IMG/VR virus record: IMGVR_UViG_3300042464_001105
Span: 1-64,000 of that record
Length of the DNA: 64,000 nucleotides
Reading direction: 5' to 3' (one strand)
Source of the DNA: a virus
Shown: piece after piece, positions 6,001 to 32,499 of the stretch
Layout of the letters: each line of letters starts with the position of its first letter
Numbering within the stretch: position 1 is the first letter of the stretch
Translations under genes and position numbers: made by a program
Notes under the pieces: model-generated
What the model was told of the DNA's origin: nothing
Seen by the model: the letters and a program-made list of their open reading frames with translations, nothing else
Databases searched by the model: none

Positions 6001-9000
6001 AAACGTTTGGAAAGGTCATCTGGAGCGGCGTATTGAATATTGCTGCTCCTGGGGCTTGGATGGTGATGTCGAATGTGTGTTGCATTAAGCCTGGAGGGAG
6101 CATGTCTCGCACTAATTCGGGCGGTACAGTGCTGATGCCAATTTGGGCGTTAGTTTGCGGTTGCCCGTCTTCCCCTAGAATAGAATTGGGGACTACTTCT
6201 AATTTCAGATTCGAGCGTTGCTCATTGGTTAAATTCGGTGACGATGTACTGTCGACGCCGATGGTCGTTGTTGTCGAGTTGCTGATCGGCTGAAGCATGC
6301 TGTTTTGCAGCCGAGGTAAGTAGACTTCGGTGCGATCGGAATTGGCGACTCGCTCTTCGCGCGTGCCCATCGTTCCCATCACCGTATTGACACTCCCTAC
6401 AATCAATTCCAGATCCATGACCATCTCGGGCCAGAATACGCCCGAAGGTACGTTAGTCGCAGTGCGGCCATCGATGGCTAGCTTGATCGTCCCAGAAGGG
6501 ACAGTGGTGAGTTCGAAGTAGCCGTTTGCATCTGTCGTAACCGATTGCGATTCGCGGCCGAGGATGAAGACTTTGGCTCCCGCGATCGGGCTCAAAAAGA
6601 CGTCATCATTGGTATGCAAGATGCCGTCATTACCAGCCAAGATGTCGTCGCGAGTCATCGCCTTTAAATCGACGCCTGGATCGACGACTCGACCTTGGAT
6701 CGATGTATTCGGCAATGAAGATAGGCTGACCGTGGTGAAGTTGTACGAAAAATCCCCACCAGCTTCGCCATTACCGTCGGCGTCGAGTAGAGAGTCATCG
6801 ACGCCCCTTATCGCATCGCCATCAATATGGACCGTGATGGTGGATGATCCGGGCATCGGACTAGTGAAAAAGAGCCATGCGAACGTGCCGTCTTGGGAGG
6901 GAACAATCGTTGCTGGTAGCTTGGCCCCAGTCGTATCGGTAGCGTAGAAGCTTAGTGGTGTGAGGGTGCTTTTGTCGACTGGTCGCGAAAAGTGGACTTG
7001 GGGCCGGAATGTGCTGCCGATGTCGCTCGAGCCACTGGATGGCGTTTGGTCCGTAATAGTGAGAGGGATAAGGTGGCTGATAGTAAACGTGCGATTAACG
7101 GTAGTTACGAGGCCAGCGGCATCGCGGGCTATAAGCGTTATTGTGTGCGATCCGGGCTGGACCTTGGATAGATCGATTGGAGTGCTAAAGCCACCATCGG
7201 TTGAAGAGAATCTGATAGGGACGCGAGCTCCAGTGCCGATCTGGTAAGTCAGCGAAACGAGATTTGAGCCGGTACCTGAGGCCGTGCCTTCCAAAAATTG
7301 ACCAGCGGTGATAGTTGCTCCTTCGGCTGGGCTAGTGATGCTGGCCGTTGGAACGAGGGTGTCGAGCGTGAAGGTGAAATCGAAGTTGGACGATTGCAGT
7401 CCAGCATGGTCGATCGCAGTAAATCGAATGGTGTGCGTGCCGTTGGATGAACTGTCGAGCGGTAACGACGGTGTAAACGTGAACCGACCACTGGCATTCA
7501 GGCTAAGCGGTTGGCTAATGCCCTCGTTTACTTGTACGGATGCACCGGCGACACCCGATAGATTGTCGATCACCCACCCTTCGATGATTGGATTGGTCGA
7601 CGTTGTGATGTTGTTAGTTGGCGAGAGGAACACAATCGATGGCGCGATAAGATCGTCAGTTAGAGAAAACCGCTCGATAACTTTGTCGGCAACTGATCGA
7701 CCAAGTGACTGCCCATCTTGATTGGAGAATTCGTAGTGAATACCACCATAAATACGGCTGCGTCCAGCTTCCGCGGCAGCTTGAGAGAAACTGATATAGC
7801 TTCGTGTGACGTTTGCTAATCCCTGCGATGTCGTTGTGAAGGCGTAATTGTCTCCGAAGTAGTTTGCGAGCACCCTAGCGGCAGTGGCACTGTAGGTACT
7901 ATGCCCAGAAACGTATTCCGGATGGGGGGGAGTGATCAACAATGGTGTCCAGTTCAAATCAACTGAAGTCGCCGCATTTGAATCGGTGTCGGCTTCGCGA
8001 ATGGCAGTTATCGGTCGCCAAAATTCCTTGCTGTACTTTGTTTTCCACGCGGCAATACTGGAGTCACTTAACGCGATGTTGAGAGTGGCAAAGAGACGGG
8101 CATTCTCTCCGAGGCTTAGATTCTTGTCGGTTGCAATTTGATTTGCTATCTGATTCCAGTGGCCTGGAGGAGTAACCGTCCCTGAGCCATCAGCCCAGAA
8201 TCGAGCTTGTTGCGTTTGGTCAGCGGTTCGTGAAGCGCTAGTTGCTGAGCCGAGGGATTTGACTTCGTTGAAGGCGGTCGACCATTGATCGGAGGTTAGC
8301 GAGGGAGGACCGCTTGGGATGATCGCGTCGATATCGCTAACGCCAAATGGTGTTAGTTCTCCCCATTGCGGCAGTTGAGCTTGATCGTACATAGGGGCAG
8401 TTTGCTGCCAATGGCCGACTGAGTTACTTGGAGTGTAGTCAACGAATCGGTCCCAGCCGTCTTGCTTTCGGAGCGTGATAATAGCGTCAGCGACCAAGGT
8501 TCCAAATGCAATTCCATTTTCTTTGGTGATGGCGTCGAGGATGTTGTTAAGGACGTTGGTTTGTACTATTTCAAGCGATTGCTGCTGTGCCGGAAAAAGA
8601 TACTTCAGAACTTGATAGGCGGCAGAGGAAATGGCCGCTTCGATTGATAGGTTAGCAGGGGCTGAAAGCGATACAAGGTAGCTGGGCGTTTTCTCGATGG
8701 CGTTGAGAGTGTCGAGCATTGCGATACTCATCATGGTCATACCGCGGGTTGCGATAGGTGGTGGTGTCGCATCGCGTTGGATGGCATTGAGTATTGCTTG
8801 ATTCCAAATTAGAACCGGATCGGAAGTTGCGACTTCGTTGACACGGGTAAAACTCTGGCTGCCACTGTTGGTATTGCCAGCAAGATCGGAGACGCTTAGC
8901 TGCAAGTTGTTGGTGCCAACATCGAGACTCACGCTCGGAATCGTAAAGGTACCGTTACCAGTTGTGCGGAATGAGTCAGTGGAGCTATTGAGAGCGATGA

Positions 9001-10084
9001 AGGAATTTGCTTCAGTGGTTCCCAGTAGCGTGACTCGTGAGTTGCGGGTGATTTTATCCCCAATGACACCCGTATCCGAAGACAGTGATAAATCAATACT
9101 TGGAATGCTGGGAACGGTCGTATCGATCATTATCGAACGTGTCTCCAACAATGTGTTACCAGCAATATCAGTCACAGATGCGCTAAGTTGGTGAAGCCCT
9201 TCGGCTAAAGTCGAGGTCGCTTGTGAGAAGGAGCCAGTAGTAATCCCATCAAAAAGAATTGTGTCGCCAACTGTAACTCTGAGCGAAGAATTTGAGTCGG
9301 TTCTGATCTCAACTCTTGGCTTCGTGACACTAGTAATACCGTCGTTTGAGCTTCGCCCCGTATCGTCGCTGGGATCAATTCTTAAAACGCGAAGTGACGG
9401 GGGCATGGTATCGTACGTAAACTCAAGACGTTGATATCCAATACGTCCATCGTCTGACTGGACGAAGACCGTAGCAAAATGGCTTTCATCCGAAACGGGT
9501 TCTTCGGACGAGGCATCGAAAACAAAGGCATTGGATGCCGCGAGTGTAAGAGGCACAACCGATCCTCGATCGAGCCGAGCCTTTATCGTTGCACCTACCC
9601 CCGAACTTAGGTTGACCGAACCATTCAAGACTGGATTGTTCGTAATTTTGTCGATTGCGGAGGCGCCAGAATCAATAGCGAGTGAGAGGCTGGTGGCCAA
9701 TCCGGCCGGATTAGCATTCAAGTGATTAACTACAGATAGCACGTCAAGTGAAGAAAGCGTGAAGTCACCGTCGACATCCAGATAGTTGTTACCCCCAACA
9801 GGTTGCGTGAAGTCGATTTTTGCCCCACCGCCATTCTGGCGATTAATTTCGTTTATTGGAGCCAAGGCATCCAATGGCGACACTGTTCCATCGAAATCGA
9901 CGTCGAGATTCCACAAAGGGTTTTGCCAGTCGGACGCGAGTACCACACGCCCTTCAAGGAGCTCGAAAAACGACCTCCTTGCTACCTTTTTCCGCCAAGT
10001 ACGCAGGCGTTTGGCTGGAAGCGAACGTTTCGAAGCACCTGAAAACAGTTTAGGGAACCATTTGGCGAAAGATCGGAAATGCAT
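1..10084 (-). CDS. Giant planctomycete secreted/surface multidomain protein (partial, 3' end outside window)
   Basis: Manual translation from ATG 10084 gives MHFRSFAKW...RRSFFELLEGRVVLASDWQNPLWNLDVDFDGTVSPLDAL (LEPR-xLL-like motif then dockerin-like). The same frame was verified at 4903, 4420 and 2-31 (GTFQNNGTFT). The track lists no long minus ORF here, implying the frame stays open to the window edge. Internal motifs: SRIYGGIHY/PEYVSGHS (VCPO/PAP2), DxDGDG acidic loops, PG-binding-like, MepA-like, LVIVD-like. Confidence 0.9.
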   Translation of the reverse strand, partial: MHFRSFAKWFPKLFSGASKRSLPAKRLRTWRKKVARRSFFELLEGRVVLASDWQNPLWNLDVDFDGTVSPLDALAPINEINRQNGGGAKIDFTQPVGGNNYLDVDGDFTLSSLDVLSVVNHLNANPAGLATSLSLAIDSGASAIDKITNNPVLNGSVNLSSGVGATIKARLDRGSVVPLTLAASNAFVFDASSEEPVSDESHFATVFVQSDDGRIGYQRLEFTYDTMPPSLRVLRIDPSDDTGRSSNDGITSVTKPRVEIRTDSNSSLRVTVGDTILFDGITTGSFSQATSTLAEGLHQLSASVTDIAGNTLLETRSIMIDTTVPSIPSIDLSLSSDTGVIGDKITRNSRVTLLGTTEANSFIALNSSTDSFRTTGNGTFTIPSVSLDVGTNNLQLSVSDLAGNTNSGSQSFTRVNEVATSDPVLIWNQAILNAIQRDATPPPIATRGMTMMSIAMLDTLNAIEKTPSYLVSLSAPANLSIEAAISSAAYQVLKYLFPAQQQSLEIVQTNVLNNILDAITKENGIAFGTLVADAIITLRKQDGWDRFVDYTPSNSVGHWQQTAPMYDQAQLPQWGELTPFGVSDIDAIIPSGPPSLTSDQWSTAFNEVKSLGSATSASRTADQTQQARFWADGSGTVTPPGHWNQIANQIATDKNLSLGENARLFATLNIALSDSSIAAWKTKYSKEFWRPITAIREADTDSNAATSVDLNWTPLLITPPHPEYVSGHSTYSATAARVLANYFGDNYAFTTTSQGLANVTRSYISFSQAAAEAGRSRIYGGIHYEFSNQDGQSLGRSVADKVIERFSLTDDLIAPSIVFLSPTNNITTSTNPIIEGWVIDNLSGVAGASVQVNEGISQPLSLNASGRFTFTPSLPLDSSSNGTHTIRFTAIDHAGLQSSNFDFTFTLDTLVPTASITSPAEGATITAGQFLEGTASGTGSNLVSLTYQIGTGARVPIRFSSTDGGFSTPIDLSKVQPGSHTITLIARDAAGLVTTVNRTFTISHLIPLTITDQTPSSGSSDIGSTFRPQVHFSRPVDKSTLTPLSFYATDTTGAKLPATIVPSQDGTFAWLFFTSPMPGSSTITVHIDGDAIRGVDDSLLDADGNGEAGGDFSYNFTTVSLSSLPNTSIQGRVVDPGVDLKAMTRDDILAGNDGILHTNDDVFLSPIAGAKVFILGRESQSVTTDANGYFELTTVPSGTIKLAIDGRTATNVPSGVFWPEMVMDLELIVGSVNTVMGTMGTREERVANSDRTEVYLPRLQNSMLQPISNSTTTTIGVDSTSSPNLTNEQRSNLKLEVVPNSILGEDGQPQTNAQIGISTVPPELVRDMLPPGLMQHTFDITIQAPGAAIFNTPLQMTFPNVFGAAPGTKLNYLSFDHTTGRLVIEGTSTVSVDGLSATTDAGSGITKPGWHGLTPPGSTGEGKRSGDEGWKKGDKDKDGDGDKDDDDDTDGDGIPNDKDPDDDNDQKPDDNDDDDDGDGTPDDKDSDTLEWVEHRTGNLGDVISISLANLSFLKKYSFTKAIGGTIAKIPDWESGLRDSATVYFVPQNPGALELHLLARHVLKDGGEANANVKVIINVRDSYAKTNEKDAVTSNLTVLDAFRVQQRLKYLGFFEASGRTIAVDGILGNGSRSAIGLFNAAVSGKRGVFNPSATIDLSWINSANAPSWLKNAKSGPGWTNIEVSKVEHDWGTSWALEVLKSAGANNKGPSLLVDDLSEKPGGQRGHEGHYTGIDIDFDTPPKETKWEDRAIAIPFYRTHTIGGKRYVAAGITEDKRGDRHVITMIGNTVGFAEFSETDSSAPANALTHDLTYDNETILDRIVKFIVDNPEIKNYDIAKIRSQIELFSSVTTKSGASVGTIYYNDPRTWSKHWPVTGLSVRFSKGHNGHFHVNIQPPSSAASSGTFLASSTNFVPIGQGFGNDPRVHFRITTGSGVEISGMTSDVGRFSAFLPPKTNFSVVLYNAATNRSAQYDGNSSTAGSPTNIGPYYLDVFAGTDSDRDGIPDLGEFAIGTDPVLADTDNDGVSDSSEIAQGLDPLSGKAVATGILASLPLQGEAKQIVVQGDIDNNGKQTAYIATGSYGLALVDVSQFNKPTLLGQIDLPGDSVDVAIDAPARLAVVASGTGGMSILDVADPTKPTNRMTVPINAGQLEVKDGVVYVAVDGWLQSYEMQTGSLLQVLSLSSNSITGLAREGSTLFTMDVARVLRAIDISGPNMVAKGFLTMPQGGGSLFVGNGVAYVSAFSSQTGGYATADVSDPTNLRLIAGSASSGSSASPNPYIVANGSGLGIVAVGGNFRGATPSLSVFDVRDPSKTNQFVTSFPLDASPNSVTVAGGIAYVAGGSADLQIINYQSFDSKRIAPTASIDTSKMDSDPITAGIQVVEGSSLSIKADINDDVQVRNVELLVDGTVVQSTLSFPYNLSATMPLISETKSTAIVQVRATDTGGNVTTSPVVALSLVRDTTTPTLFAINPTDGSIKGKNFRTIELSFSEGMDPATLIPSNFTLVDSAGLSFAPVNVQLRNNSSQIQLTYNPLAIGTYTFTTKTSGLTDRAGNKLGTIDLVNRFELRPFTASFINPAGGFWDVATNWNSGQVPGPTDDVLIDMLGSSTVTIRSGNVQINSLLSNKPITLSGGTLSIESNATLNSSFTLSGGNLSGSGDVTINGPLNWIGGTMSGTGKSIVSAGGTLNLSGVGKTLNRILENNGAANWTEGSLGMNNGTFQNNGTFTANSATTLQCQGSGGTNAFVNAGTFIKQGAGTMQFQFISTTVAFNNTGNVDVQAGTLSLIGGTHSGGLISIAASATVNLNAYSISAPLAMATTGTLVVNGAVTFSVASTISNLNIGGTATFSAASTVSNLNLSGTLSGAGDVTITGVLNWTGGTMSGTGKTIVAAGGTLNLSSVNSKTLSRILENNGAANWTEGSLGMNNGTFQNNGTFTANSATTLQCQGSGGTNAFVNAGTFIKQGAGTMQFQFISTTVAFNNTGNVDVQAGTLSLIGGTHSGGLISIAASATVNLNAYSISAPLAMATTGTLVVNGAVTFSVASTISNLNIGGTATFSAASTVSNLNLSGTLSGAGDVTITGVLNWTGGTMSGTGKTIVAAGGTLNLSSVNSKTLSRILENNGAANWTEGSLGMNNGTFQNNGTFTANSATTLQSSSSGVTNAFENNGTFIKQGTGTVQFPFSGSGSSSTIVRFNNTGNVDVQAGTLNLWGGTHSGGLISIAASASVILTGTYSINAPLAMATTGTLVISGTVTFSVATTISNLNGNGTSTFSAASTVSNLNLLGTLSGAGDVTITGVLNWTGGTMSGTGKTIVPAGGTLNLSSGSGNSRNLNRILENNGAANWTGGTLDMNNGTFQNNGTFT
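661..1997. repeat. 627-bp (209 aa) near-perfect intragenic tandem repeat, ~2.1 copies, plus a diverged copy at 1-660
   Basis: TTCCATTGTTTTGGAAGGTGCCG recurs at 661, 1288 and 1915. Shadow ORFs 1091..1273 and 1718..1900 are identical. Confidence 0.95.
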
Positions 10085-23189: not shown

Positions 23190-23324
23190 ATCTTATTGCT
23201 CGCGAGGCTGCCGGGCTAACTGAAACACGAACTCAACTAAAACAATCTAACGAATTCTTGTCCAACGTAACCATCCAACCACCACAACCATTCCGTCTCA
23301 ATGAAATTCCAGGAGGGAAGTATT

Positions 23325-24728
23325 ATGAAAATCGAAATGTGGTCGATCGACCAGGTCAAGCCGTACGAAAACAATCCTCGCATTAATGATGATGCGGTCG
23401 CTTCAGTCGCCGCATCCATTCGAGAGTTTGGATTCCAGCAACCTTTGGTAGTTGATTCTGCCGGCGTCATCATCGTCGGCCATACGCGTTTGAAGGCGGC
23501 GATCAAACTCGGTCTCGATCGGGTCCCGATCCTGGTAGCCACCAACCTCACGCCGGAACAGGTCCGAGCCTATCGCATTGCCGACAACAAGACAGCCGAG
23601 CTTGCCGAATGGAATTATGACTTGCTGCCGATCGAATTGTCGGCATTGCAGGAAGCCAACTACGATCTCTGCCTGCTGGGGTTCAGTGCCGATGAGTTGG
23701 CAAAGTTGATGGACACCGGCGTCAACGAGGGGCTCACCGATCCAGATGATGTTCCCTTGCCACCCGACGATGCGATCACACAACCAGGCGATCTTTGGAT
23801 TCTTGGAAATCATCGGTTGCTTTGTGGTGACTCTTCAAATCCAGAACATCTTGATCGACTGCTCGCAGGCAAGCCTATCCATCTTGTGAACACGGACCCG
23901 CCGTACAACGTCAAGGTTGAACCGCGAAGCAAGAACGCAATCGCAGCCGGCTTGAGTTCGTTTACCAACGATGCCGCGTCGTCGAAGCTGAAGAACGACC
24001 AGGGCATGGCAGCGTTCACGCATGCGATCAATCAGAAGAACAAGTCCAAGACCGGCGCGGCGGCAACGGCGACCGCAAACGCACCTCGGCAAAAGATGCG
24101 AGCCAAGGATCGCCCGCTTGCGAATGACTTCGTTTCCGATGATGAGTTCGATCGATTGCTCGACGCATGGTTCGGAAACATTGCACGTGTGCTGGTCCCC
24201 GGGGGCTGCTTCTACATCTGGGGTGGTTACGCCAACTGCGGCAACTATCCCCCGTTCCTGAAGAAGCATGGATTGTACTTCAGCCAAGCGATCATCTGGA
24301 ACAAGATGCATCCGGTTTTGACACGTAAAGATTTTATGGGCGCTCACGAGTGGGCGTTCTATGGATGGAACGAAGGTGCCGGCCACAAGTACTATGGGCC
24401 GAACAACGAAACCGATTTGTGGAATGTTAAGAAGATCCCGCCACAACAACTTGAGCATCTGACTGGCAAGCCTGCCGAGCTCGCGGTTCGATCAATTCAG
24501 TACTCGTCGCTTCCTGGCCACAACGTACTCGACCTCTTCGGTGGCAGCGGCTCAACCTTGATTGGCGCTGAGCAGACTGGACGCAATGCGTTCTTAATGG
24601 AACTCGATTGTCCATACGCAGACGTAATCGTTGATCGGTACCAAAGGTTCACCGGCAAGCAAGCGATTCTCGAGCGAACGGGTGAGTCACCGATTCCGAT
24701 GAAGCCACGTGAAGCGAACATGCGATAG
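23325..24728 (+). CDS. ParB-fused DNA amino-methyltransferase (N6/N4)
   Basis: PYENNPR..GHTRL..IADN; TDPPY; HLTGKP; LDLFGGSGST. Confidence 0.93.
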   Translation: MKIEMWSIDQVKPYENNPRINDDAVASVAASIREFGFQQPLVVDSAGVIIVGHTRLKAAIKLGLDRVPILVATNLTPEQVRAYRIADNKTAELAEWNYDLLPIELSALQEANYDLCLLGFSADELAKLMDTGVNEGLTDPDDVPLPPDDAITQPGDLWILGNHRLLCGDSSNPEHLDRLLAGKPIHLVNTDPPYNVKVEPRSKNAIAAGLSSFTNDAASSKLKNDQGMAAFTHAINQKNKSKTGAAATATANAPRQKMRAKDRPLANDFVSDDEFDRLLDAWFGNIARVLVPGGCFYIWGGYANCGNYPPFLKKHGLYFSQAIIWNKMHPVLTRKDFMGAHEWAFYGWNEGAGHKYYGPNNETDLWNVKKIPPQQLEHLTGKPAELAVRSIQYSSLPGHNVLDLFGGSGSTLIGAEQTGRNAFLMELDCPYADVIVDRYQRFTGKQAILERTGESPIPMKPREANMR

Positions 24729-24738
24729 GAGGTCGCGT

Positions 24739-25056
24739 TCAAAGTTTATGACAATGCCAAGCTTGATCCTCGAAAACATAAACGTACTCAGTACCACAGT
24801 TCCTTGCGAACTCGTGGAGGGCAGCGCGCGTTGGCATGGCGACCGCGTTATTGCCAGCGGTAAATCGCTCCGGACTACCGTCGTTAGCGAGCGATCGAAT
24901 ATCGCCGCCAGCAACAAGCGTCCGTACCGAATCAATAGCGATGTAGTTTTGTTCGAGAATCTTGCCGGCATGGTCTGGGTAACCATCGAAGTGCAGATAG
25001 ATCGCCGCATACCGACCATCGTCTTGCTTGCAAGCGATCGTGGCTCGTGTAGACAT
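24739..25056 (-). CDS. Conserved phage hypothetical protein
   Basis: MSTRATI...IYLHFDGYPDHAGKIL...EYVYVF; AAGGA RBS. Confidence 0.8.
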   Translation of the reverse strand: MSTRATIACKQDDGRYAAIYLHFDGYPDHAGKILEQNYIAIDSVRTLVAGGDIRSLANDGSPERFTAGNNAVAMPTRAALHEFARNCGTEYVYVFEDQAWHCHKL

Positions 25057-25068
25057 GTTTTGTGTTCC

Positions 25069-25293
25069 TTACTTCGATGGTTCGTGATGGTTGGGTTCGA
25101 CGATAGAGACGCAATCGTCAGGCATCGTCAACATGAGGGTTCGACCGTTGTCCCAATCAACATCGATCTGCGTCCAGTCGCGATGATCGTAAACGGCGAC
25201 AACGGTTCCGAGCGATCCAACGGGAATCGGATCGGGATCCTGCAGCATCGACACCAAACGGATGCGATCGCCTTGCTTCAATCGTGTTTTCAT
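25069..25293 (-). CDS. DUF4314-like protein
   Basis: GDRIRLVSM.DPDPIPVGSLGTV...VDWDNGRTL. Confidence 0.85.
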   Translation of the reverse strand: MKTRLKQGDRIRLVSMLQDPDPIPVGSLGTVVAVYDHRDWTQIDVDWDNGRTLMLTMPDDCVSIVEPNHHEPSK

Positions 25294-25542
25294 AGTTGTT
25301 GGTTCCTTACTGTGAGCGAAGCAAAAAAATACGAACCGTCACAATCAGCCAGCAAGTCAAGAAAACATCAAGCCGACATCCAAGCTTGTTTTCTAGATTT
25401 CTTGCAAATATGTGGATCCGCCGGAGAAGCTCAGGGTTGCGTTGTGTCGCGTTGCATTTCAGGTTGGGTTTGTGCCCGTATCCACGAGGAAAAGCCCACA
25501 CGTTGCAAACGTTGGGCGATTGGTGTGGGATCCAGCGAAGTA

Positions 25543-25962
25543 TTAATCTCGACTCGGAACCAACACGCATGCTCCGTCACCAGTGATTGGGTACTCCTTC
25601 AGTTCGCTTGTCCTTGCGAACAACTGGTCGCTTCGACGTATCACGTAGTCAACGTATGCGAAGCACTCGGTATCATCAATCCGCCTGAGTTGGTACCGAA
25701 CTCCCGGTTCAGGAACAGCGATCTGTTCGACGTACAGGTCCGAGATGGTCTTCACTTCGTCAATGTAAGGGCCGGCTGGTCGCAAAATGCCCAGCGTGCT
25801 GCGAAACGAAATGCGTTGGCCTGTTGCTTGGTTGGTGGCGATGATATGTGTGGTCTCGCCAGCCTTCGACGGCTGAAAGATCGATTCGACCTTGACGATG
25901 ATCGTCTTACCACAATGGCAAGCGACATACCGCTCGCCAATCCGGATGTCTTTGGCTCGCAT
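25543..25962 (-). CDS. Hypothetical protein, N-terminus paralogous to the adjacent HTH protein
   Basis: DIRIGERY...ATNQATGQRI versus EVTIGGKY...ATNLATGKKV in the neighbour. Confidence 0.7.
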   Translation of the reverse strand: MRAKDIRIGERYVACHCGKTIIVKVESIFQPSKAGETTHIIATNQATGQRISFRSTLGILRPAGPYIDEVKTISDLYVEQIAVPEPGVRYQLRRIDDTECFAYVDYVIRRSDQLFARTSELKEYPITGDGACVLVPSRD

Positions 25963-25965
25963 GAT

Positions 25966-26544
25966 CTAGCCCCGTACCGTAAAGCGGCCGCGTTCTGTTT
26001 TGACAAACTTGCTGTCGTCGCCCTTGGCCAGGTCGCGAAGGATCGCGCTATACAAGGTCGCGTGCGGAGTCTTGCCCCCAGGACTCGACCAGTAACCCTT
26101 GGCTTCCATCGCGGTAACCAACTCTTGAGCATTCATCGGTTCGGAGGATTCGCCAAGGACCTTCAAAGCCGCCGTGACGCAACTCAATCGCTTCTCGCTG
26201 GCGTCGGCGCTTTCCGTCGCTGTTGCTGCAGTCTTTGCCTTACGAAGCTTCTTTGGAACCGCCCCTACTGTGGATGCTGCTTCTCCAATCGTCTCGACCG
26301 TAGCCGGTTCGTTCTCAACAATCGTGACGTTACCTTCTGTGGTTACCTTCGCGCCTCCGCGCCGCATGCCGACTTCACCCTGCAAGCGCTGAGCGCTCTT
26401 GATCAGGACCTTCTTACCGGTCGCGAGGTTGGTGGCATCCCAGCCACCGCGCGGCTTCTCGGCGTCGATCTGGATCTCACATCGATTGCAAGAAACGTTT
26501 GCATAGTACTTGCCGCCGATCGTAACTTCTGCCTTCTTCATCAT
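25966..26544 (-). CDS. Winged-helix (HARE-HTH-like) protein
   Basis: AALKVLGESSEPMNAQELV...GKTPHATLYSAILRDL...FVKTERGRF; GGAGA RBS. Confidence 0.8.
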   Translation of the reverse strand: MMKKAEVTIGGKYYANVSCNRCEIQIDAEKPRGGWDATNLATGKKVLIKSAQRLQGEVGMRRGGAKVTTEGNVTIVENEPATVETIGEAASTVGAVPKKLRKAKTAATATESADASEKRLSCVTAALKVLGESSEPMNAQELVTAMEAKGYWSSPGGKTPHATLYSAILRDLAKGDDSKFVKTERGRFTVRG

Positions 26545-26634
26545 TCTTTCTCCCAATTCGTATTCGTGGTTGGCTGCCATCGTCAGGTCGATCGAACCAC
26601 CGATCAACTACGCGATTCCGTTCCGCGTTTCGGC

Positions 26635-26970
26635 TTATTTGGAAAAGACCAAGTCGGCCAATCCGGTAGAAAGAAAATCCACAATCACCTGAATCTCTGT
26701 ATTAGCCGCAGGTACATCCAATCCGCGGTCAAAGCTAAAAAGTGTTTTGTGGTCGGCGATTCGTTCGATCCAAAGTTTCGAGATCTTGCTCTTGCCCAAT
26801 TCGTAGTCTTCGCTTTTTGCGTGCTCGGCGAAAACCAAAGCGTTGAACTTGTATTGCTCGTTGACCGTTCCAATCACCCAGGTACCGCCACCCGTGGTGC
26901 GTCGATCGATCTTGGTGATCGTCAGGTCGAGGTCTATGTCGTTTTCCCCGTTGTTGTTTGTCTTTGTCAT
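26635..26970 (-). CDS. Conserved phage hypothetical protein
   Basis: ISKLWI...FDRGLDV; GGAGA RBS. Confidence 0.75.
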   Translation of the reverse strand: MTKTNNNGENDIDLDLTITKIDRRTTGGGTWVIGTVNEQYKFNALVFAEHAKSEDYELGKSKISKLWIERIADHKTLFSFDRGLDVPAANTEIQVIVDFLSTGLADLVFSK

Positions 26971-27105
26971 CTTTGCGTCTCCGTTTTGAAAAGCTGTGAA
27001 CATCGTTTTGCGTCAACACACAGTTCGCATGCGCTTCGCATTACATCAAGCGCTGTTGGAAAAGATTCAGATAATTCTTTTCCACAGCGCCGCGGTTCGT
27101 CGCGA

Positions 27106-27378
27106 TCAGAAATCTCGACACGTCTCCCAAGCTCGTTTGCTGCCGTAGCAGATCTGCCCACCTTCGACGATGTAGACCGTGTTGTCATCGGCAACGTCTT
27201 GGGCATCGTCTTCGTCCGCATCTTCGTCGCTTGCTTCGTTCATGTCGCGGCCGCTGGTCACGCCGAAGATACGGTTCTCGAAAGGCCAATTCTGCTGAGT
27301 CATCAACCGTATTTTGGCGTCGCCTCCGAACTCTTCGCGGTAGTCGTTGAGGATTTCGATCAAGGTGTCGAGGTTCAT
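27106..27378 (-). CDS. Small acidic hypothetical protein
   Basis: IRLMTQQNWPFE...VYIVEGGQICY; GGAGA RBS. Confidence 0.75.
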   Translation of the reverse strand: MNLDTLIEILNDYREEFGGDAKIRLMTQQNWPFENRIFGVTSGRDMNEASDEDADEDDAQDVADDNTVYIVEGGQICYGSKRAWETCRDF

Positions 27379-27663
27379 GTTCTTATCTCCGTTGGGGTGA
27401 ATGAAAAGTCGTTTTCCGATAACACACATGAGCCATGCGGTTTGAACCGAAGCAACTCAAATCCAGAAGGTTTTCCCAGTCTTTTGGAATGTTTTTTTGA
27501 ATGCCCAACGGTGCACAACGTTGGCGCATGTCGCGTCGTTTTCGAAGTCGCATTGTTGGGCGTGGCGAGCCAGCAGGATGCGACGGTGGGCGAGTGTGTC
27601 GACCAAGCGAGAAAACGCCGCGCATCCGTACGCGGCGTTCTAGGGATATTGCTTGTGCGCTGT

Positions 27664-27861
27664 TTAAAGGATCGAACCGAGTCGGCTCTTCTTCATCGCT
27701 TCGAGTGCTTCGCAGGCGTAAAGGTGTTCGACGAGCAAAGGGCATGCGGACTCTTGTTGTGCTGCGTCGGCGATCTCGAGGGCGTCTGCCAAGGTTCGCA
27801 ATCCCTCGATCTCTCGAAGAGCGGCGTCGGTTGCTTTGTGTTCGTTGCTGTTCTTGGCCAT
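27664..27861 (-). CDS. Small hypothetical protein
   Basis: GGAGA RBS, downstream of a promoter-motif copy. Confidence 0.6.
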   Translation of the reverse strand: MAKNSNEHKATDAALREIEGLRTLADALEIADAAQQESACPLLVEHLYACEALEAMKKSRLGSIL

Positions 27862-28105
27862 GGTTCTGTCTCCGTTGTGGGAAAGGGTTTGAATCGTTTA
27901 TGCGATAACACACATGAGCCATGCGGTTCAAAACACATCAAGCGCAGTATGCGAGTAAATGGAAAAGATTCTGCAGCTTTCTTCCGGTGCCGACACAAAG
28001 CACAAAACGCGACGTGTGGCGTTCAAAAAAAGCTTGGGTCGCCATTAGTTACTTACCCCAAGGATGCGACTGCTGGCGGACGTTACGATCGAGAATGCCA
28101 GAACA

Positions 28106-28143
28106 ACGAACTACGTCGAGCGATTCTGCTCGGCGTAGTTCGT
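28106..28143 (-). terminator. 16-bp-stem hairpin downstream of the amidoligase gene
   Basis: ACGAACTACGTCGAGC-gattct-GCTCGGCGTAGTTCGT with one non-Watson-Crick pair. Only a weak U-tract on the minus strand and none on the plus strand. Confidence 0.55.
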
Positions 28144-28155
28144 GGATCTCGTTTC

Positions 28156-29016
28156 TTAGGCAGCCGTGTCGTATTTCTTGGCCAAGTCCAAAAGTTTCGT
28201 TTTGATCGTCTTCCAATCTGGGGTTTGGTCCCCGTTGGTGATCTCGCCGAAGGTCTTCTTTCGAAGGTCGCCCTTGTACCAACCCTTGGTCCATCCGAGC
28301 CGGTAGAACAGTCGGTTCAATTCCGTTTCGCCGAGGCCGGCATCGGGGCGATCCCAGCAGCTCTTGGTTCCTTCTTTCTTGGCGTAATCCCAATCGGGGC
28401 ATCGTTTGGAGTTGAGGGCGAGTTCGACCAAACCCAAAACCATCATCAGGTATCCAATCACCTTGGTTTTGTTCAGCGTGCCGGCGAAAGCTCTGAACTC
28501 GATTCGGTTCTTGCCTTGTCGAAGGTGGGTCAAATTCAAAAGATGGTAGCGGTCCGATTCGCATTGGCTCTTCGCGGTGTCTTTGTCGCCGTAGTGTTTG
28601 ATCTTCTTGGTGTATACCGCGTGTTCGCGTCGTCGCGATCCGGTCGAGGCGAAGATCGCTCGTTCGTGGTTGCCGACCAAGGAAATCAATCTTGCCAGGG
28701 CGGCGGCGTCTCCGTTGAAGGTCAGGGTTATGTGAAGTCCGCAGCTTGCGTTGACCCGTGCGTCGCGAGTATTTATCGCGTCGATCGCGTTCTCAACCTC
28801 TTTCATTCCTGCGTATCCGACAAGTTTTGGGCTTACAAACTCGCAGCCTTTGCGGCTCATGTTTTCCGGTTTGATACTCGCGTCGCGTTCTGCTTTCCAT
28901 CCGGTTGGAAGCCAGGGTACTTGGTAACCGCCGTGGTAGGGGCCGATCGGTGTATTGTCGGTACCGGGGAGGGTGGTTTCGAATTCAATTCCGAAGGTGA
29001 TCTCGTTTGCGTTCAT
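28156..29016 (-). CDS. Putative amidoligase (COOH-NH2 ligase) family protein
   Basis: TFGIEFE, WKAERDASI, EFVSP, SCGLHI, RYHLLNL, IEFR. Confidence 0.88.
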   Translation of the reverse strand: MNANEITFGIEFETTLPGTDNTPIGPYHGGYQVPWLPTGWKAERDASIKPENMSRKGCEFVSPKLVGYAGMKEVENAIDAINTRDARVNASCGLHITLTFNGDAAALARLISLVGNHERAIFASTGSRRREHAVYTKKIKHYGDKDTAKSQCESDRYHLLNLTHLRQGKNRIEFRAFAGTLNKTKVIGYLMMVLGLVELALNSKRCPDWDYAKKEGTKSCWDRPDAGLGETELNRLFYRLGWTKGWYKGDLRKKTFGEITNGDQTPDWKTIKTKLLDLAKKYDTAA

Positions 29017-29290
29017 CGTTCTGTTCCTTTGTGGTTCAAGGTGTGTTTTGCGTCGCGCTTTCCGCGTCGCGATGACACAATGGAGCCATGCGTTTCGAGG
29101 ATCATCCAGCCGCTTCCTGCATGTTTTTTCAGTAATTGTGCATGTTTTCTGAGAGGCAACCGGTGCCCCAACATTACGCCACGGTGGCGTCCAAACATGC
29201 ATCGCATAACAAGGCGAACATGCAAACAAAACGCGACTGTGGCGAACGTGTCGCAACCAGTGGCAATTCAACGGATCATGGAGGAATGGG

Positions 29291-29497
29291 ATGAGTGAAG
29301 GCAACAACCAGGTCGACCCAACGCGACTTTCGATCGAGCAGGCAGGAAAGCTACTTTCAGCTGCTTATCGAGAGCGAATAGAGGTCGCAAAGATTCAGGA
29401 AGACATCGACGCCGGCGCACCGACCAATGCCGACGGAACGATCAACCTCGTGCACTACAGCGCATGGCAAGCAGAGGAGATGGGACATGGCGAATAG
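29291..29497 (+). CDS. Small putative DNA-binding protein (possible terminase small subunit-like)
   Basis: GGAGG RBS, GAPTNADGTINLVHYSAW, position upstream of terminase. Confidence 0.65.
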   Translation: MSEGNNQVDPTRLSIEQAGKLLSAAYRERIEVAKIQEDIDAGAPTNADGTINLVHYSAWQAEEMGHGE

Positions 29498-29507
29498 AAT
29501 CGCGACG

Positions 29508-29942
29508 CTAAGAGATTGGAAGAGTCCAGTCTTGGACAGTCAATCCAGGAATTCGCTCATAATCAACTGTATTTCGTGTTATGACAGTCATGTGCTGACT
29601 GATCGCAATCGATGCAATCCGCAGATCCATGGTTGCGACTCGAATTCTATTACGCTTAAAGTCCTCGAATACCTCGGATGCCGCGAGGTTGAACGGAAGA
29701 ACCTGCGAGCAAGAGAAGTCCTTCAAAACTTGTTCGAGTCGAGCATACCCAGTGACAATCTTTTGAGGGCTATTCGACTGTTTAACATACTTTGTCCAAC
29801 CTGCAACAATCTCGTGAAAAGAGACGATGGTTGTGTACACGTTCGAATCACTAACTACTGCAATTCTTTTGAGAACGTTAGTGCAGTCTTCGCCCCTGTG
29901 GCCTTGCAAGATGCCAAGGTGATCCGTGTAGAGAATAAACAT
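29508..29942 (-). CDS. vapC: PIN-domain (VapC-like) toxin
   Basis: ILYTDH..SFHE..MDLRIASIA..TRNTVDY. The first acidic residue appears replaced by Tyr. Confidence 0.85.
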   Translation of the reverse strand: MFILYTDHLGILQGHRGEDCTNVLKRIAVVSDSNVYTTIVSFHEIVAGWTKYVKQSNSPQKIVTGYARLEQVLKDFSCSQVLPFNLAASEVFEDFKRNRIRVATMDLRIASIAISQHMTVITRNTVDYERIPGLTVQDWTLPIS

Positions 29943-29947
29943 CAACC

Positions 29948-30154
29948 TTACTCGTCATTCAGAATATCGGTTTGCCGCTCTTCACGCCCCAACCGGAGAA
30001 TCTCTGCAAAATCGGGGTCATCTTTGAACGAACCTTCGATTTTGGCGATCCACCCTGGTTTCTTCGCAGCGAGATCGATTTTGCTTGATTGCGAAAGCTT
30101 AAGAAGAGTTACTTCCTTTTCCAATTGCTCAAGTCGTTCTTCAACCGTGGCCAT
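29948..30154 (-). CDS. Putative antitoxin
   Basis: VEERLEQLEKEV..WIAKIEGSFKDDPDF...GREER, directly upstream of the PIN gene. Confidence 0.8.
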   Translation of the reverse strand: MATVEERLEQLEKEVTLLKLSQSSKIDLAAKKPGWIAKIEGSFKDDPDFAEILRLGREERQTDILNDE

Positions 30155-30231
30155 ATACATCTCCAAGGAATCCAACAAGACACGACGTTCTATTGTACCT
30201 TGTAGTTCATCCAAAGGGAAAGGCCGAAAAG

Positions 30232-32499
30232 ATGCGATCTGATCCAAGGAAACTAAAGCCAAGCGAGCTATGCCGACTGCTCAATTCAACACCGCTGGGT
30301 GAGGTGATCAGCGAGCGACAACTGTATCGGCATCGTCAGCGCGCCGGCGCACGCATTGGTGATAACAAGACCGTTGATTTGCTTCGCTATTGTGCTTGGA
30401 TGCATCGCGTACGACACACGCCTCGGGCGACAAGCGGTGTTGATCCATACGATGCGATGAAAGAGCGAGCGCGTGCACGCAATGCAGCACTGGCACTCGC
30501 TGGTCGCGACATTGGTGAACTGCCGGAGGTCGACAACGTTGATCGCAAAGATCGCGCAGCGCGTGACTTCCGCTATTTCTGTGAAACGTATTTCCCATTG
30601 ACGTTTCATCTTGCGTGGTCGCCGGACCACATCAAGGTCATGGATAAGATTGAGCAAGCCGTTGTCCATGGGGGATTGTTTGCGCTAGCGATGGCGCGGG
30701 GTAGTGGGAAAAGTTCGATCGCCGAGGTTGCCTGCATCTGGGCAGTTCTATATGGGCATCGCAACTTCGTTTGTTTGATCGGCAGCGATGAAGGCCATGC
30801 GTGTGACATGCTCGACTCGATCAAAACAGAACTCGACAGCAACGAGTTGCTCTTGGCCGATTTCCCCGAAGTTATCTTTCCTATTCAAGCCCTCGATGGG
30901 ATATCGAATCGAGCTAATGGGCAGCTTTATAAAGGCAAGCGAACGCAGATCGGATGGACCGCAAAGGAGGTAGTGCTACCAACGATTGATGGCAGCAGTG
31001 CCAGCGGTGCGATTATCAAAGTGGCTGGCCTGACCGGTCGTATCCGAGGTATGAAGTTCAAACGCCCTGATGGCAGAACGGTGCGTCCAAGTTTAGTCGT
31101 GCTCGATGACCCCCAGACCGACGAGAGTGCTCGTTCGCTATCGCAATGCGCGAATCGCGAAAGCATTCTCGCCGGCGCAGTCCTTGGCTTAGCAGGACCG
31201 GGCAAAAAGATCTCTGGCATCATGCCCTGTACCGTCATTCGCCCGAGCGACATGGCCGACAATATCCTCGATCGCAATCGCCATCCCGAATGGAATGGCG
31301 AACGAACCAAGATGGTTTATGCGTTCCCTAAGAATGAAACGCTGTGGGAGCGCTATGCCGAGATCCGTGCCGAAGGAATGCGTAACGGCGATGGTGGCGA
31401 ATCGGCCACCGAGTTCTATCGTCAGAACCAAGCCGCGATGGATGAGGGTGCTGTTGTCGCTTGGCAAGAGCGATTCAACTACGACGAACTCTCCGCGATC
31501 CAGCACGCAATGAATCTCAAGTTGCAGGACGAGGCCGCATTCTTTGCCGAGTATCAAAATCAGCCTCTGCCGGCGGAAACGATTGTCGATGGGATGCTCA
31601 AGCCCGAGGAGGTCGCAAGCAAGGTTAATCGTATGGATCGCGGGTTATTATCGATTGGAGCAAACCAACTCACCGCCTTCATCGACGTTCAGCAGAAGCT
31701 TTTATTTTATGCGGTCACCGCCTGGGAGGATAATTTCACGGGCTACATTGTCGACTATGGCTGTTACCCCGATCAACAGCGTCCCTACTTCACGCTGCGC
31801 GAGGCTCGCCAGACGCTGAGCTCCGAAGCGACTGGAACCGGACTCGAGGGTTCGATCTATGCCGGCCTCGAATCGCTGACATCGAAATTGCTCGATCGTG
31901 AGTGGCAGCGCGACGATGGTGCAGCGATGCGCATCGGTCGCTGTTTGATCGACGCTAACTGGGGCCAATCGACGGATGTCGTCTACCAGTTCTGCCGGCA
32001 GTCCAAGCACGCCGCTGTGATCATGCCCAGCCACGGTCGGTTCGTCGGCGCTTCAAGTTTGCCGTTCAGCGAGTATCGTCGCCGACCAGGTGATCGCGTA
32101 GGACTCAACTGGCGCATCCCAAACGTTAGCGGGAAGCGGGCGATTCGCCACGTGGTATACGACACCAATTGGTGGAAGTCGTTTGTCAACGCTCGCCTTC
32201 GAGTGAACATGGGAGATCGTGGTTGTCTATCGCTCTTCGGTAGCAACTCCGAAACGCATCGCATGCTCGCCGAGCATCTAACTTCGGAGTACTTCATCAA
32301 GACCGAGGCTCGCGGCCGAAGCGTTGACGAATGGAAGCAGCGACCTGAGCAGCCAGACAACCACTGGTTCGACTGTTTGGTTGGCTCAGCGGTTGCGGCT
32401 TCGATGCAAGGAGCAATTTTATTTGGAACCGAAGCAACACTCGATATTTCCCGAAAACGCATGAGTTTTAAAGAGCTTCAGCAGACCCGACGCAAATAA
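30232..32499 (+). CDS. Terminase large subunit (GpA-like)
   Basis: MARGSGKS, VVLDDPQ, FIDVQ, DNHWFDC. Confidence 0.92.
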   Translation: MRSDPRKLKPSELCRLLNSTPLGEVISERQLYRHRQRAGARIGDNKTVDLLRYCAWMHRVRHTPRATSGVDPYDAMKERARARNAALALAGRDIGELPEVDNVDRKDRAARDFRYFCETYFPLTFHLAWSPDHIKVMDKIEQAVVHGGLFALAMARGSGKSSIAEVACIWAVLYGHRNFVCLIGSDEGHACDMLDSIKTELDSNELLLADFPEVIFPIQALDGISNRANGQLYKGKRTQIGWTAKEVVLPTIDGSSASGAIIKVAGLTGRIRGMKFKRPDGRTVRPSLVVLDDPQTDESARSLSQCANRESILAGAVLGLAGPGKKISGIMPCTVIRPSDMADNILDRNRHPEWNGERTKMVYAFPKNETLWERYAEIRAEGMRNGDGGESATEFYRQNQAAMDEGAVVAWQERFNYDELSAIQHAMNLKLQDEAAFFAEYQNQPLPAETIVDGMLKPEEVASKVNRMDRGLLSIGANQLTAFIDVQQKLLFYAVTAWEDNFTGYIVDYGCYPDQQRPYFTLREARQTLSSEATGTGLEGSIYAGLESLTSKLLDREWQRDDGAAMRIGRCLIDANWGQSTDVVYQFCRQSKHAAVIMPSHGRFVGASSLPFSEYRRRPGDRVGLNWRIPNVSGKRAIRHVVYDTNWWKSFVNARLRVNMGDRGCLSLFGSNSETHRMLAEHLTSEYFIKTEARGRSVDEWKQRPEQPDNHWFDCLVGSAVAASMQGAILFGTEATLDISRKRMSFKELQQTRRK

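Follow-up and report, generated by a model that had tools for sequence, protein, structure and literature searches.

A 1531-codon open frame antisense to eight phase-locked backward genes, a probable translated bridge ahead of the terminase of a planctomycete phage

Record IMGVR_UViG_3300042464_001105 of the IMG/VR collection is a single-contig virus genome of 88,177 bp, of which positions 1-64,000 were analysed (this whole stretch of 64,000 nucleotides is called the window below). It belongs to a planctomycete phage from lake water. Its plus strand carries, in order, a primase/helicase, a ParB-methylase gene, a block of eight genes lying in the opposite orientation (the cargo), a small conserved gene, a gpA-type terminase large subunit, a lambda-type portal and the capsid. 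Across the block, one plus-strand frame, termed here the bridge, is free of stop codons. It probably constitutes a translated but meaningless cistron that extends from the methylase stop to the small gene and keeps the operon continuously translated. Selection for the open frame appears nearly certain from the sequences compared below, and translation is very probably the reason for its openness.

The bridge runs from 24703 to 29295 through 1531 codons before it meets a TGA at 29296-29298; as a listed open reading frame (ORF) it spans 24709 (GTG) to 29298 and would encode 1529 aa. No other stretch on the plus strand of the full record stays free of stops for as long, the runner-up having 1224 codons. 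Eight minus-strand ORFs, with low ends at 24739, 25069, 25543, 25966, 26635, 27106, 27664 and 28156, share its exact codon register. The spacers between these genes measure 12, 249, 3, 90, 135, 285 and 294 nt, every one divisible by three, for which the probability by chance is (1/3)^7. The initial annotation had described a plus frame open for about 4.6 kb with eight genes in register and seven spacers that are multiples of three; the recount gives 1531 codons with all eight genes aligned, and identical spacer lengths were recomputed.

TTA, CTA and TCA are the sole sense codons with a stop as their complement. They are absent from the 1158 cargo codons, versus 657 of 21,173 codons (3.1%) for a set of 31 long ORFs from elsewhere in the phage. 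Setting the gene starts more tightly leaves 1062 codons, again with none of the three against 32.8 expected, in line with the earlier claim that the cargo avoids these codons and its neighbours use them. When the Leu and Ser content of the cargo is taken into account, the expectation is 23.3 (Poisson P 7.5e-11). Other A-ending codons are near expectation in the cargo (ACA 14 vs 14.4, GCA 26 vs 25.5, GGA 21 vs 20.7), and GTA, ATA and AAA also occur at expected numbers. The GC content at third codon positions (GC3) of the cargo is 0.642, versus 0.534 in the rest of the genome.

Counted on the plus strand, the bridge frame holds no stop in 1070 genic codons, versus 34 and 35 in the other two frames, and none in 461 spacer codons, versus 13 and 12 (P ~2e-6); the roughly 460 stop-free intergenic codons estimated at first are thereby recovered. 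Codon usage predicts 43.8 stops for the window bridge, and the probability of finding none is given by log10 P = -19.3. Opposite the other plus-strand ORFs (300 codons or longer), no in-register antisense run exceeds 160 codons, at a genome GC of 0.51, and a 10-kb minus-strand gene uses TTA, CTA and TCA normally (127 of 3365 codons). The shadow controls of the initial annotation thus roughly hold, with 160 codons as the longest run, except that its '271-aa shadow' is a second bridge, described further on.

The true genes of the block are the backward ones, with the giant ORF as their antisense, because the minus strand reads as eight ordinary proteins, five of them with family support (Amidoligase_2, DUF7678, HARE-HTH, DUF4314 and phrog_1987). 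All lie on the minus strand. The gene nearest the methylase encodes 105 aa (24739..25056; phrog_1987, E 1.7e-23) and is in register; it is followed by a 74-aa DUF4314 gene with a Pfam/PHROG family match (25069..25293) and by a 139-aa gene without a family (25543..25962), whose translation is protein-like and which has same-size in-register ORFs in two relatives, L001 and L015. The next gene carries a C-terminal HARE-HTH domain (25966..26607; PF05066, E 3e-13; likely start 26580 or 26544) and precedes a DUF7678 gene (26635..27003; PF24726, E 1.3e-13; likely start 26970). Further on lie a gene for an acidic protein of 90-107 aa, with no family in Pfam or PHROG (27106..27429), and a 65-aa gene with no Pfam family (27664..27861). 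The last and largest, of 286 aa, is an Amidoligase_2 gene (28156..29016; PF12224; phrog_2443, E 2e-25). In the part of a planctomycete phage paper in eLife available for comparison (PMC10945688), amidoligase genes are mentioned, and neither terminase nor antisense is.

The spacers hold elements of their own. Four copies of a 44-nt promoter-like element (family D1, 61-100% identity) lie on the minus strand at 27006-27049, 27412-27455, 27898-27941 and 29065-29108, upstream of cargo genes. All four are stop-free in the bridge frame; their start-to-start distances are 406, 486 and 1167 nt, and three copies have the same phase relative to the bridge frame while one does not. On the plus strand, a spacer also contains a weak, terminator-like hairpin at 27462-27488 (11 bp with 3 G-C pairs, followed by a T-run). 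A terminator scan returned weak hairpins only, 24 versus 14.0 +/- 4.2 in shuffled sequences.

Relatives were collected by a terminase protein search, which yielded 80 viral and 80 genome contigs, nearly all from Planctomycetota; the genome contigs include complete chromosomes of two cultured Pirellulaceae strains. The loci of these relatives bear L-numbers (L082 and L087 are carried by cultured Pirellulaceae strains), and 82 dereplicated loci were used for end geometry and register. A close clade was defined by a terminase large subunit (TerL) identity of at least 88% and a GC content of 0.50-0.56; after removal of duplicates, 29 of its loci have 300 nt or more of sequence ahead of the small gene, and every one of them was examined. 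The interval measured ran upstream from the small gene as far as the methylase stop or the edge of the contig, for a total of 99,555 nt. In all 29 loci, a single open frame covers at least 0.81 of this interval (at least 0.90 in 23 of them), and the uncovered remainder is always the final 62-216 nt. These frames cross 4-15 backward genes and reach 2514 codons. At each locus, the codon usage of the terminase module predicts 23-51 stops, with log10 P from -10 to -22.

Giant plus-strand frames of 1340-2514 codons, lying over 8-15 in-register minus ORFs, are found just upstream of the terminase in many relatives (for example, 2514 codons in L046, 2399 in L015 and 1894 in L082). Distant relatives, with 69-75% terminase identity, hold other in-register cargo (GATase_6, DUF6900, HTH_31 and Fic genes), along with HARE-HTH and amidoligase genes that are in register as well. 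Homologous phages and prophages with different cargo therefore retain the open plus frame. The earlier proposal that cargo is gained or lost in multiples of three is backed by this comparison, as the frame is kept open over changing cargo and the backward genes share one register. The window sequence itself was recovered exactly, in pieces, from contigs of 4 DNA runs. Among 40 listed of 148 population variants in these contigs, none makes a plus-strand stop, which is uninformative since only about 1.3-2 would be expected. One variant combines a +1/-1 indel pair (25056/25064) that preserves the frame, which may be an alignment effect.

The coding strand can be told apart by family content and by the pattern of substitutions. 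Inside the bridges of the 82 loci, 120 in-register ORFs (of 359) and 120 off-register ORFs (of 289) were drawn at random from the minus ORFs of at least 70 aa. Pfam matches to member families (E <= 1e-5) were obtained for 49 of the 120 in-register ORFs, namely HARE-HTH 27, DUF7678 9, Amidoligase_2 6, DUF4314 4 and others 3, versus none of the 120 off-register ones, so that the backward genes of the relatives also keep to one register. Eight off-register ORFs were checked singly; seven were without a family and one was real (a DUF4314 gene in L132). Conservation by blastp was dropped as a frame test because shadows of conserved DNA score too, which makes it too noisy (50 off-register vs 225 in-register 'conserved' ORFs).

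Between the window and L015, genic differences number 391 at plus codon position 1, 110 at position 2 and 152 at position 3, the peak being the minus-strand wobble position, and differences in the spacers number 86, 94 and 107 in the same order, with no clear periodicity (chi-square ~2.4, not significant). Constraint on amino acids is thus seen on the minus strand only. Selection on amino acids would accordingly act on the cargo proteins alone, and the plus-strand product appears to be unconstrained save for lacking stops. Cargo-synonymous changes that would create a plus-strand stop make up 115 of 2376, or about 4.8%; the ~390 wobble differences should consequently give some 19 plus-strand stops, and zero are seen. 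The view that ribosome transit, and not the protein, is selected gains support from this combination of a conserved open frame with an unconstrained product.

The product of the bridge has a noise-like translation and no family in a Pfam search. The bridge ORFs of seven relatives were also searched; six have no Pfam family and the seventh matches through a fused methylase only. Five giant antisense frames like the bridge have been entered as proteins of 1796-2308 aa in public gene catalogues (P0002-P0006), and the two named entries, both from JGI, are called 'hypothetical protein'. These catalogue giants are probably annotation artefacts that hide the true cargo genes.

The cistron preceding the bridge is a gene with ParB_N and N6_N4 DNA methylase domains (23301..24728, plus strand; PF02195, PF01555), whose TAG stop (24726-24728) falls within the open frame, 26 nt from its beginning. 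Two candidate starts flank this stop, namely GTG 24709, 20 nt before its end, and ATG 24748, 19 nt after it. At the other end, the bridge stop overlaps the ATG of the small conserved gene (29291..29497, plus strand, 68 aa) in the sequence ATGAGTGA, as the initial annotation had it, and the small gene has a GGAGGA upstream. This gene has no family in Pfam or PHROG; its product may be the small subunit of the terminase or an accessory protein for packaging.

Both junctions recur in the relatives. A small plus-strand gene of 68-72 aa precedes the terminase in 82/82 dereplicated loci. In 37 loci, the bridge stop and the start of this gene overlap by 1-14 nt (ATGA, ATGAGTGA and ATGACAACTGA types), and in 9 the stop lies 1-4 nt ahead of the start; in 63 of the 82, it falls within -30 to +40 nt of that start. 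In 71/82 loci, the bridge frame is already open where the preceding plus ORF stops; ATGA-type starts overlap that stop in 25 loci and TAATG-type starts in 7. In L148, a contig of Botrimarina hoheduenensis, the ParB-methylase ORF (6749-9787) has an in-frame extension of about 570 codons that lies over backward genes, HARE-HTH included, so that the bridge forms a tail of the methylase, and in L028, L134 and L160 the methylase and the bridge share one frame with one stop codon between them. Frameshift entry from the methylase was considered and ruled out, as the bridge has no fixed frame relative to it; the three phases are represented by 37, 34 and 11 loci. Both ends of the bridge look like those of translationally coupled cistrons. 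Because of this geometry, and because stop codons matter to ribosomes alone, we infer that the bridge frame is translated.

A second, shorter bridge lies downstream. The interval between the small gene and the terminase is occupied, in the window and L001 alike, by an inserted backward pair that resembles a toxin-antitoxin system. The window pair consists of a PIN-like toxin candidate (29508..29945, minus strand; phrog_13721, E 3e-11; PF01850, E 1.5e-4, just under the cut-off) and a putative antitoxin partner (29948..30262, minus strand; no family in the Pfam search). A plus frame of 271 codons at 29427..30242 overlaps the end of the small gene, crosses the insert and stops on the ATG (30232) of the gene for the gpA-type terminase large subunit (30232..32499, plus strand; PF20454). 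It has no stop in 244 codons, versus 12 and 9 in the other frames. It shares its register with the toxin gene but not with the antitoxin gene, and no credible Pfam family was found for its product. Different toxin-antitoxin inserts occupy this position in L046 and L027, and with that of the window they form a natural series that passes from bridged to partly bridged (L046) to unbridged (L027).

The mechanism suggested by this arrangement would work as follows. Ribosomes that finish the ParB-methylase gene would restart within about 20 nt, cross eight backward genes and their promoter-bearing spacers over 1.5 kilocodons of antisense, and terminate at the start codon of the next plus-strand gene; the second short bridge would follow, and then the terminase. 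The cargo is kept in the antisense register in which any stop would face a Leu or Ser codon with synonyms, so that the proteins bear no cost, and the spacers are held stop-free and at multiples of three; for a transcript that has to be translated, this would be the cheapest solution. The sequence of the product is not selected. Plus-strand transcription against the cargo promoters would be a by-product.

The likeliest benefit would be that the operon mRNA is never free of ribosomes, which would avert Rho-dependent polarity or decay of the pyrimidine-rich antisense stretch. Rut sites are shielded by the ribosomes that trail RNA polymerase, and uncoupling of the two processes leads to Rho-dependent polarity, according to the accessible part of PMC12360218; the same source states that Rho suppresses antisense transcription in all organisms studied. 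Because Rho acts on untranslated and antisense RNA, a plus transcript over 4.6 kb of antisense would be exposed unless translated. A rho gene was found above the cut-off in three of three host genomes, and the purine fraction of the bridge plus-strand RNA is 0.468, versus 0.492-0.532 (mean 0.514) for plus-strand genes. Ribosomes would also be delivered to the terminase genes, and those in the bridge frame would travel through the 27462-27488 hairpin. Protection from polarity is about evenly balanced, as the benefit, against RNA protection, hairpin melting and ribosome delivery taken together. An anti-Rho purpose, a late/early timing of the two strands and a silencing of the cargo are speculative.

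Several observations weigh against this account. A junk protein of 1500-2500 aa is costly, and the C/G ratio of the bridge RNA is 0.99, unlike that of the classical, C-rich rut sites. The start site in the window is weaker than in many relatives, as GTG 24709 lacks a Shine-Dalgarno-like motif and ATG 24748 stands 14 nt behind its AGGAGGT, a long spacing; the start first proposed at AGGAGGT/ATG 24748 keeps its motif, but with this spacing and with the GTG as an alternative. The bridge ends outside the range of -30 to +40 nt around the start of the small gene in 19 of the 82 loci. The real DUF4314 gene of L132 (5467-5703, minus strand) is off register with the open plus frame that covers it, and overlaps the methylase end. 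The toxin-antitoxin insert of L046 is partly bridged, by ORFs of 80 and 141 aa with an 88-nt gap, and the PIN toxin-antitoxin insert of L027 is unbridged, its plus ORFs measuring 40, 37, 56 and 100 aa. In the window, a backward GmrSD-type restriction gene with a RAMA domain (55372-57552, minus strand) is also unbridged, with 29 in-register TTA, CTA or TCA codons. Because of these exceptions (L027, L046, GmrSD and L132), the bridging rule is strong for the methylase-terminase block and is not universal; the unbridged inserts may be recent or lie at operon boundaries. Finally, in relatives with a GC content of 0.60-0.70, ordinary genes too are overlain by in-register shadows of 500-784 codons, and the per-locus P of these relatives is just 1e-1 to 1e-8. 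A greedy tiling control separates bridge from control in the low-GC clade only, the antisense control of GC-rich genomes being nearly open too. Because such shadows arise anyway at high GC, the statistical claim is restricted to the low-GC clade, and the other loci are argued by register and end geometry.

Those GC-rich shadows are also what an ordinary shadow ORF, produced by chance and the codon bias of the cargo, has in its favour, together with the raised GC3 of the cargo. For short bridges in GC-rich relatives this is a fair partial account. For the window its probability is practically negligible, as the longest run over other genes is 160 codons at GC 0.51, the three stop-complement codons alone are missing, and the spacers, all multiples of three, are open in a single frame. 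With 29 of 29 members in agreement, it is refuted for the low-GC clade. A related reading starts from decoding. TTA, CTA and TCA are all decoded by U34 tRNAs, and the cargo, which resembles early or anti-defence cargo, could avoid them if such tRNAs were scarce or attacked early in infection, the open frame being a by-product. This is exceedingly improbable, since it leaves the stop-free spacers (0/461), the shared register and the end overlaps unexplained; moreover, other A-ending codons are normal in the cargo, and the other phage genes use the three codons at 3.1%.

It is also very unlikely that the giant ORF is a functional protein overprinted on the cargo genes, in true dual coding. It is the longest ORF on its strand and has five similar catalogue proteins, and bacteria are reported to have long antisense genes that are translated, according to the part of the bioRxiv report available (10.1101/2021.02.09.430400). 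Against this stand the lack of a Pfam family for the window ORF and for six of seven relatives' ORFs, a length and content that follow the cargo (4 to 15 genes), and substitutions that peak at plus codon position 1, with spacers devoid of clear plus-strand periodicity. The closest rival accepts that the frame is translated and selected open, but for a benefit other than escape from Rho, such as protection from RNases or duplex formation, hairpin melting, or a ribosome conveyor or delay timer for poorly initiated terminase genes. The evidence for openness and coupling is identical under this reading, which can further draw on the terminator-like hairpin with its T-run, on a C/G of only 0.99 and on the proposal, in the part of PMC8316113 at hand, that ribosomes protect narnavirus RNA. 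Nevertheless, the hairpin is weak, with 3 G-C pairs of 11, and the small gene has its own GGAGGA, so that delivered ribosomes are perhaps unneeded. The present evidence does not separate this reading from anti-polarity, and it is considered rather unlikely as it stands. A translated bridge that keeps the operon continuously covered by ribosomes is the reading retained below.

The rest of the genome fits a tailed double-stranded DNA (dsDNA) phage, whose terminase, portal and capsid genes are on the plus strand. Near-identical DNA is present in lake-water metagenomes from many studies, and a megablast of 24000-30000 against phage and plasmid collections gave no match. An ORF of at least 3361 aa on the minus strand (2-10084) runs off the start of the window.

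For phage genomes, the retained reading would amount to a design rule, under which the backward cargo of an operon must be 'transparent' to ribosomes; codon choice, spacer length and gene order would be tied together, a link to which gene-by-gene annotation is blind. Gene callers may take the giant frame as the gene and miss the accessory genes beneath it. Conversely, the signature of register-locked backward genes without TTA, CTA or TCA could reveal operon continuity and cargo blocks in uncultured phages.

Several known systems share features with the bridge. GC-rich shadow ORFs are likewise long, codon-aligned antisense frames, and they partly explain the relatives with GC 0.60-0.70. They concern single genes and are predicted by codon usage, whereas the window frame lies some 19 orders of magnitude beyond that prediction and crosses seven spacers. 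Statistical stop avoidance opposite single prokaryotic genes has been described (10.1101/724807). As in that work, judged from its abstract, an excess of stop avoidance is found opposite real genes, with no negative selection on the translated sequence, and its authors speculate that translation serves a purpose other than making a protein; multi-gene register locking, stop-free spacers and operon coupling are absent from the abstract, which deals with single genes.

Noncontiguous operons, known from Staphylococcus aureus and from ith-1/tha-1 of phage 80alpha, provide another parallel, since transcription of an operon across backward genes can shut these genes down (PMC11087260, in the part accessible). 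There, backward genes with a promoter of their own are nested in the operon, and expression of the two is mutually exclusive; in the window the orientation of the genes agrees with this, and the four promoter-like 44-nt elements may be the promoters of the cargo. Nevertheless, the noncontiguous operon is a transcriptional concept: the word 'translation' occurs 0 times in PMC11087260, and no open antisense frame is described there. The prevention of Rho polarity by translating or stalled ribosomes, as presented in the available part of PMC12360218, would supply the reason for a bridge. The known cases of Rho shielding in that part are ordinary genes or short leader ORFs, and none is a kilocodon meaningless cistron over backward genes. 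No multi-gene, phase-locked bridge frame was found described in phages by the literature search, whose coverage left out most subscription journals, and no DNA phage case appeared among the matches listed for 'ambigrammatic'.

The closest counterpart is found in the ambigrammatic narnaviruses, in which a reverse ORF lies over the RdRp gene in an aligned register that lets stops be removed synonymously (DeRisi et al. 2019, PMC6884476, as far as available). Translation of the reverse frame is required for persistence according to the accessible parts of PMC6884476 and PMC8316113, and protection of the RNA by ribosomes was proposed by Retallack et al. 2021 (PMC8316113, likewise in part); ambigrammatic narnaviruses are treated further in 'Polymorphism of genetic ambigrams' (PMC8155312, of which a part was at hand). 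The likeness, within these parts, covers a codon-aligned (-0) reverse frame, the synonymous loss of UUA, CUA and UCA, and conservation in relatives. In both, the product is judged non-functional and translation itself is proposed to be selected, which for the phage is inferred from sequence. The narnaviruses are eukaryotic RNA viruses with one gene per segment, whereas the present case is a bacterial dsDNA phage, whose frame extends over 8 (in relatives up to 15) genes and phase-locked, promoter-bearing spacers and is joined stop-to-start to the cistrons of an operon.

The phage bridge is not a member of the narnavirus ambigrams, but it would work like one. It seems likely, on the whole, that tailed dsDNA phages can carry ambigrammatic arrays, in which up to 15 phase-locked backward genes with their promoters underlie a meaningless cistron of up to 2514 codons whose translation itself is selected, and which would act as a filter on the gain, loss and swap of cargo. 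If true, this would be the first DNA-virus and the first multi-gene counterpart of the narnavirus ambigram. A phenomenon so far known from small eukaryotic RNA viruses only would thereby be extended to bacterial DNA viruses, in which the likely reasons, Rho polarity and the coupling of transcription to translation, are genetically testable.

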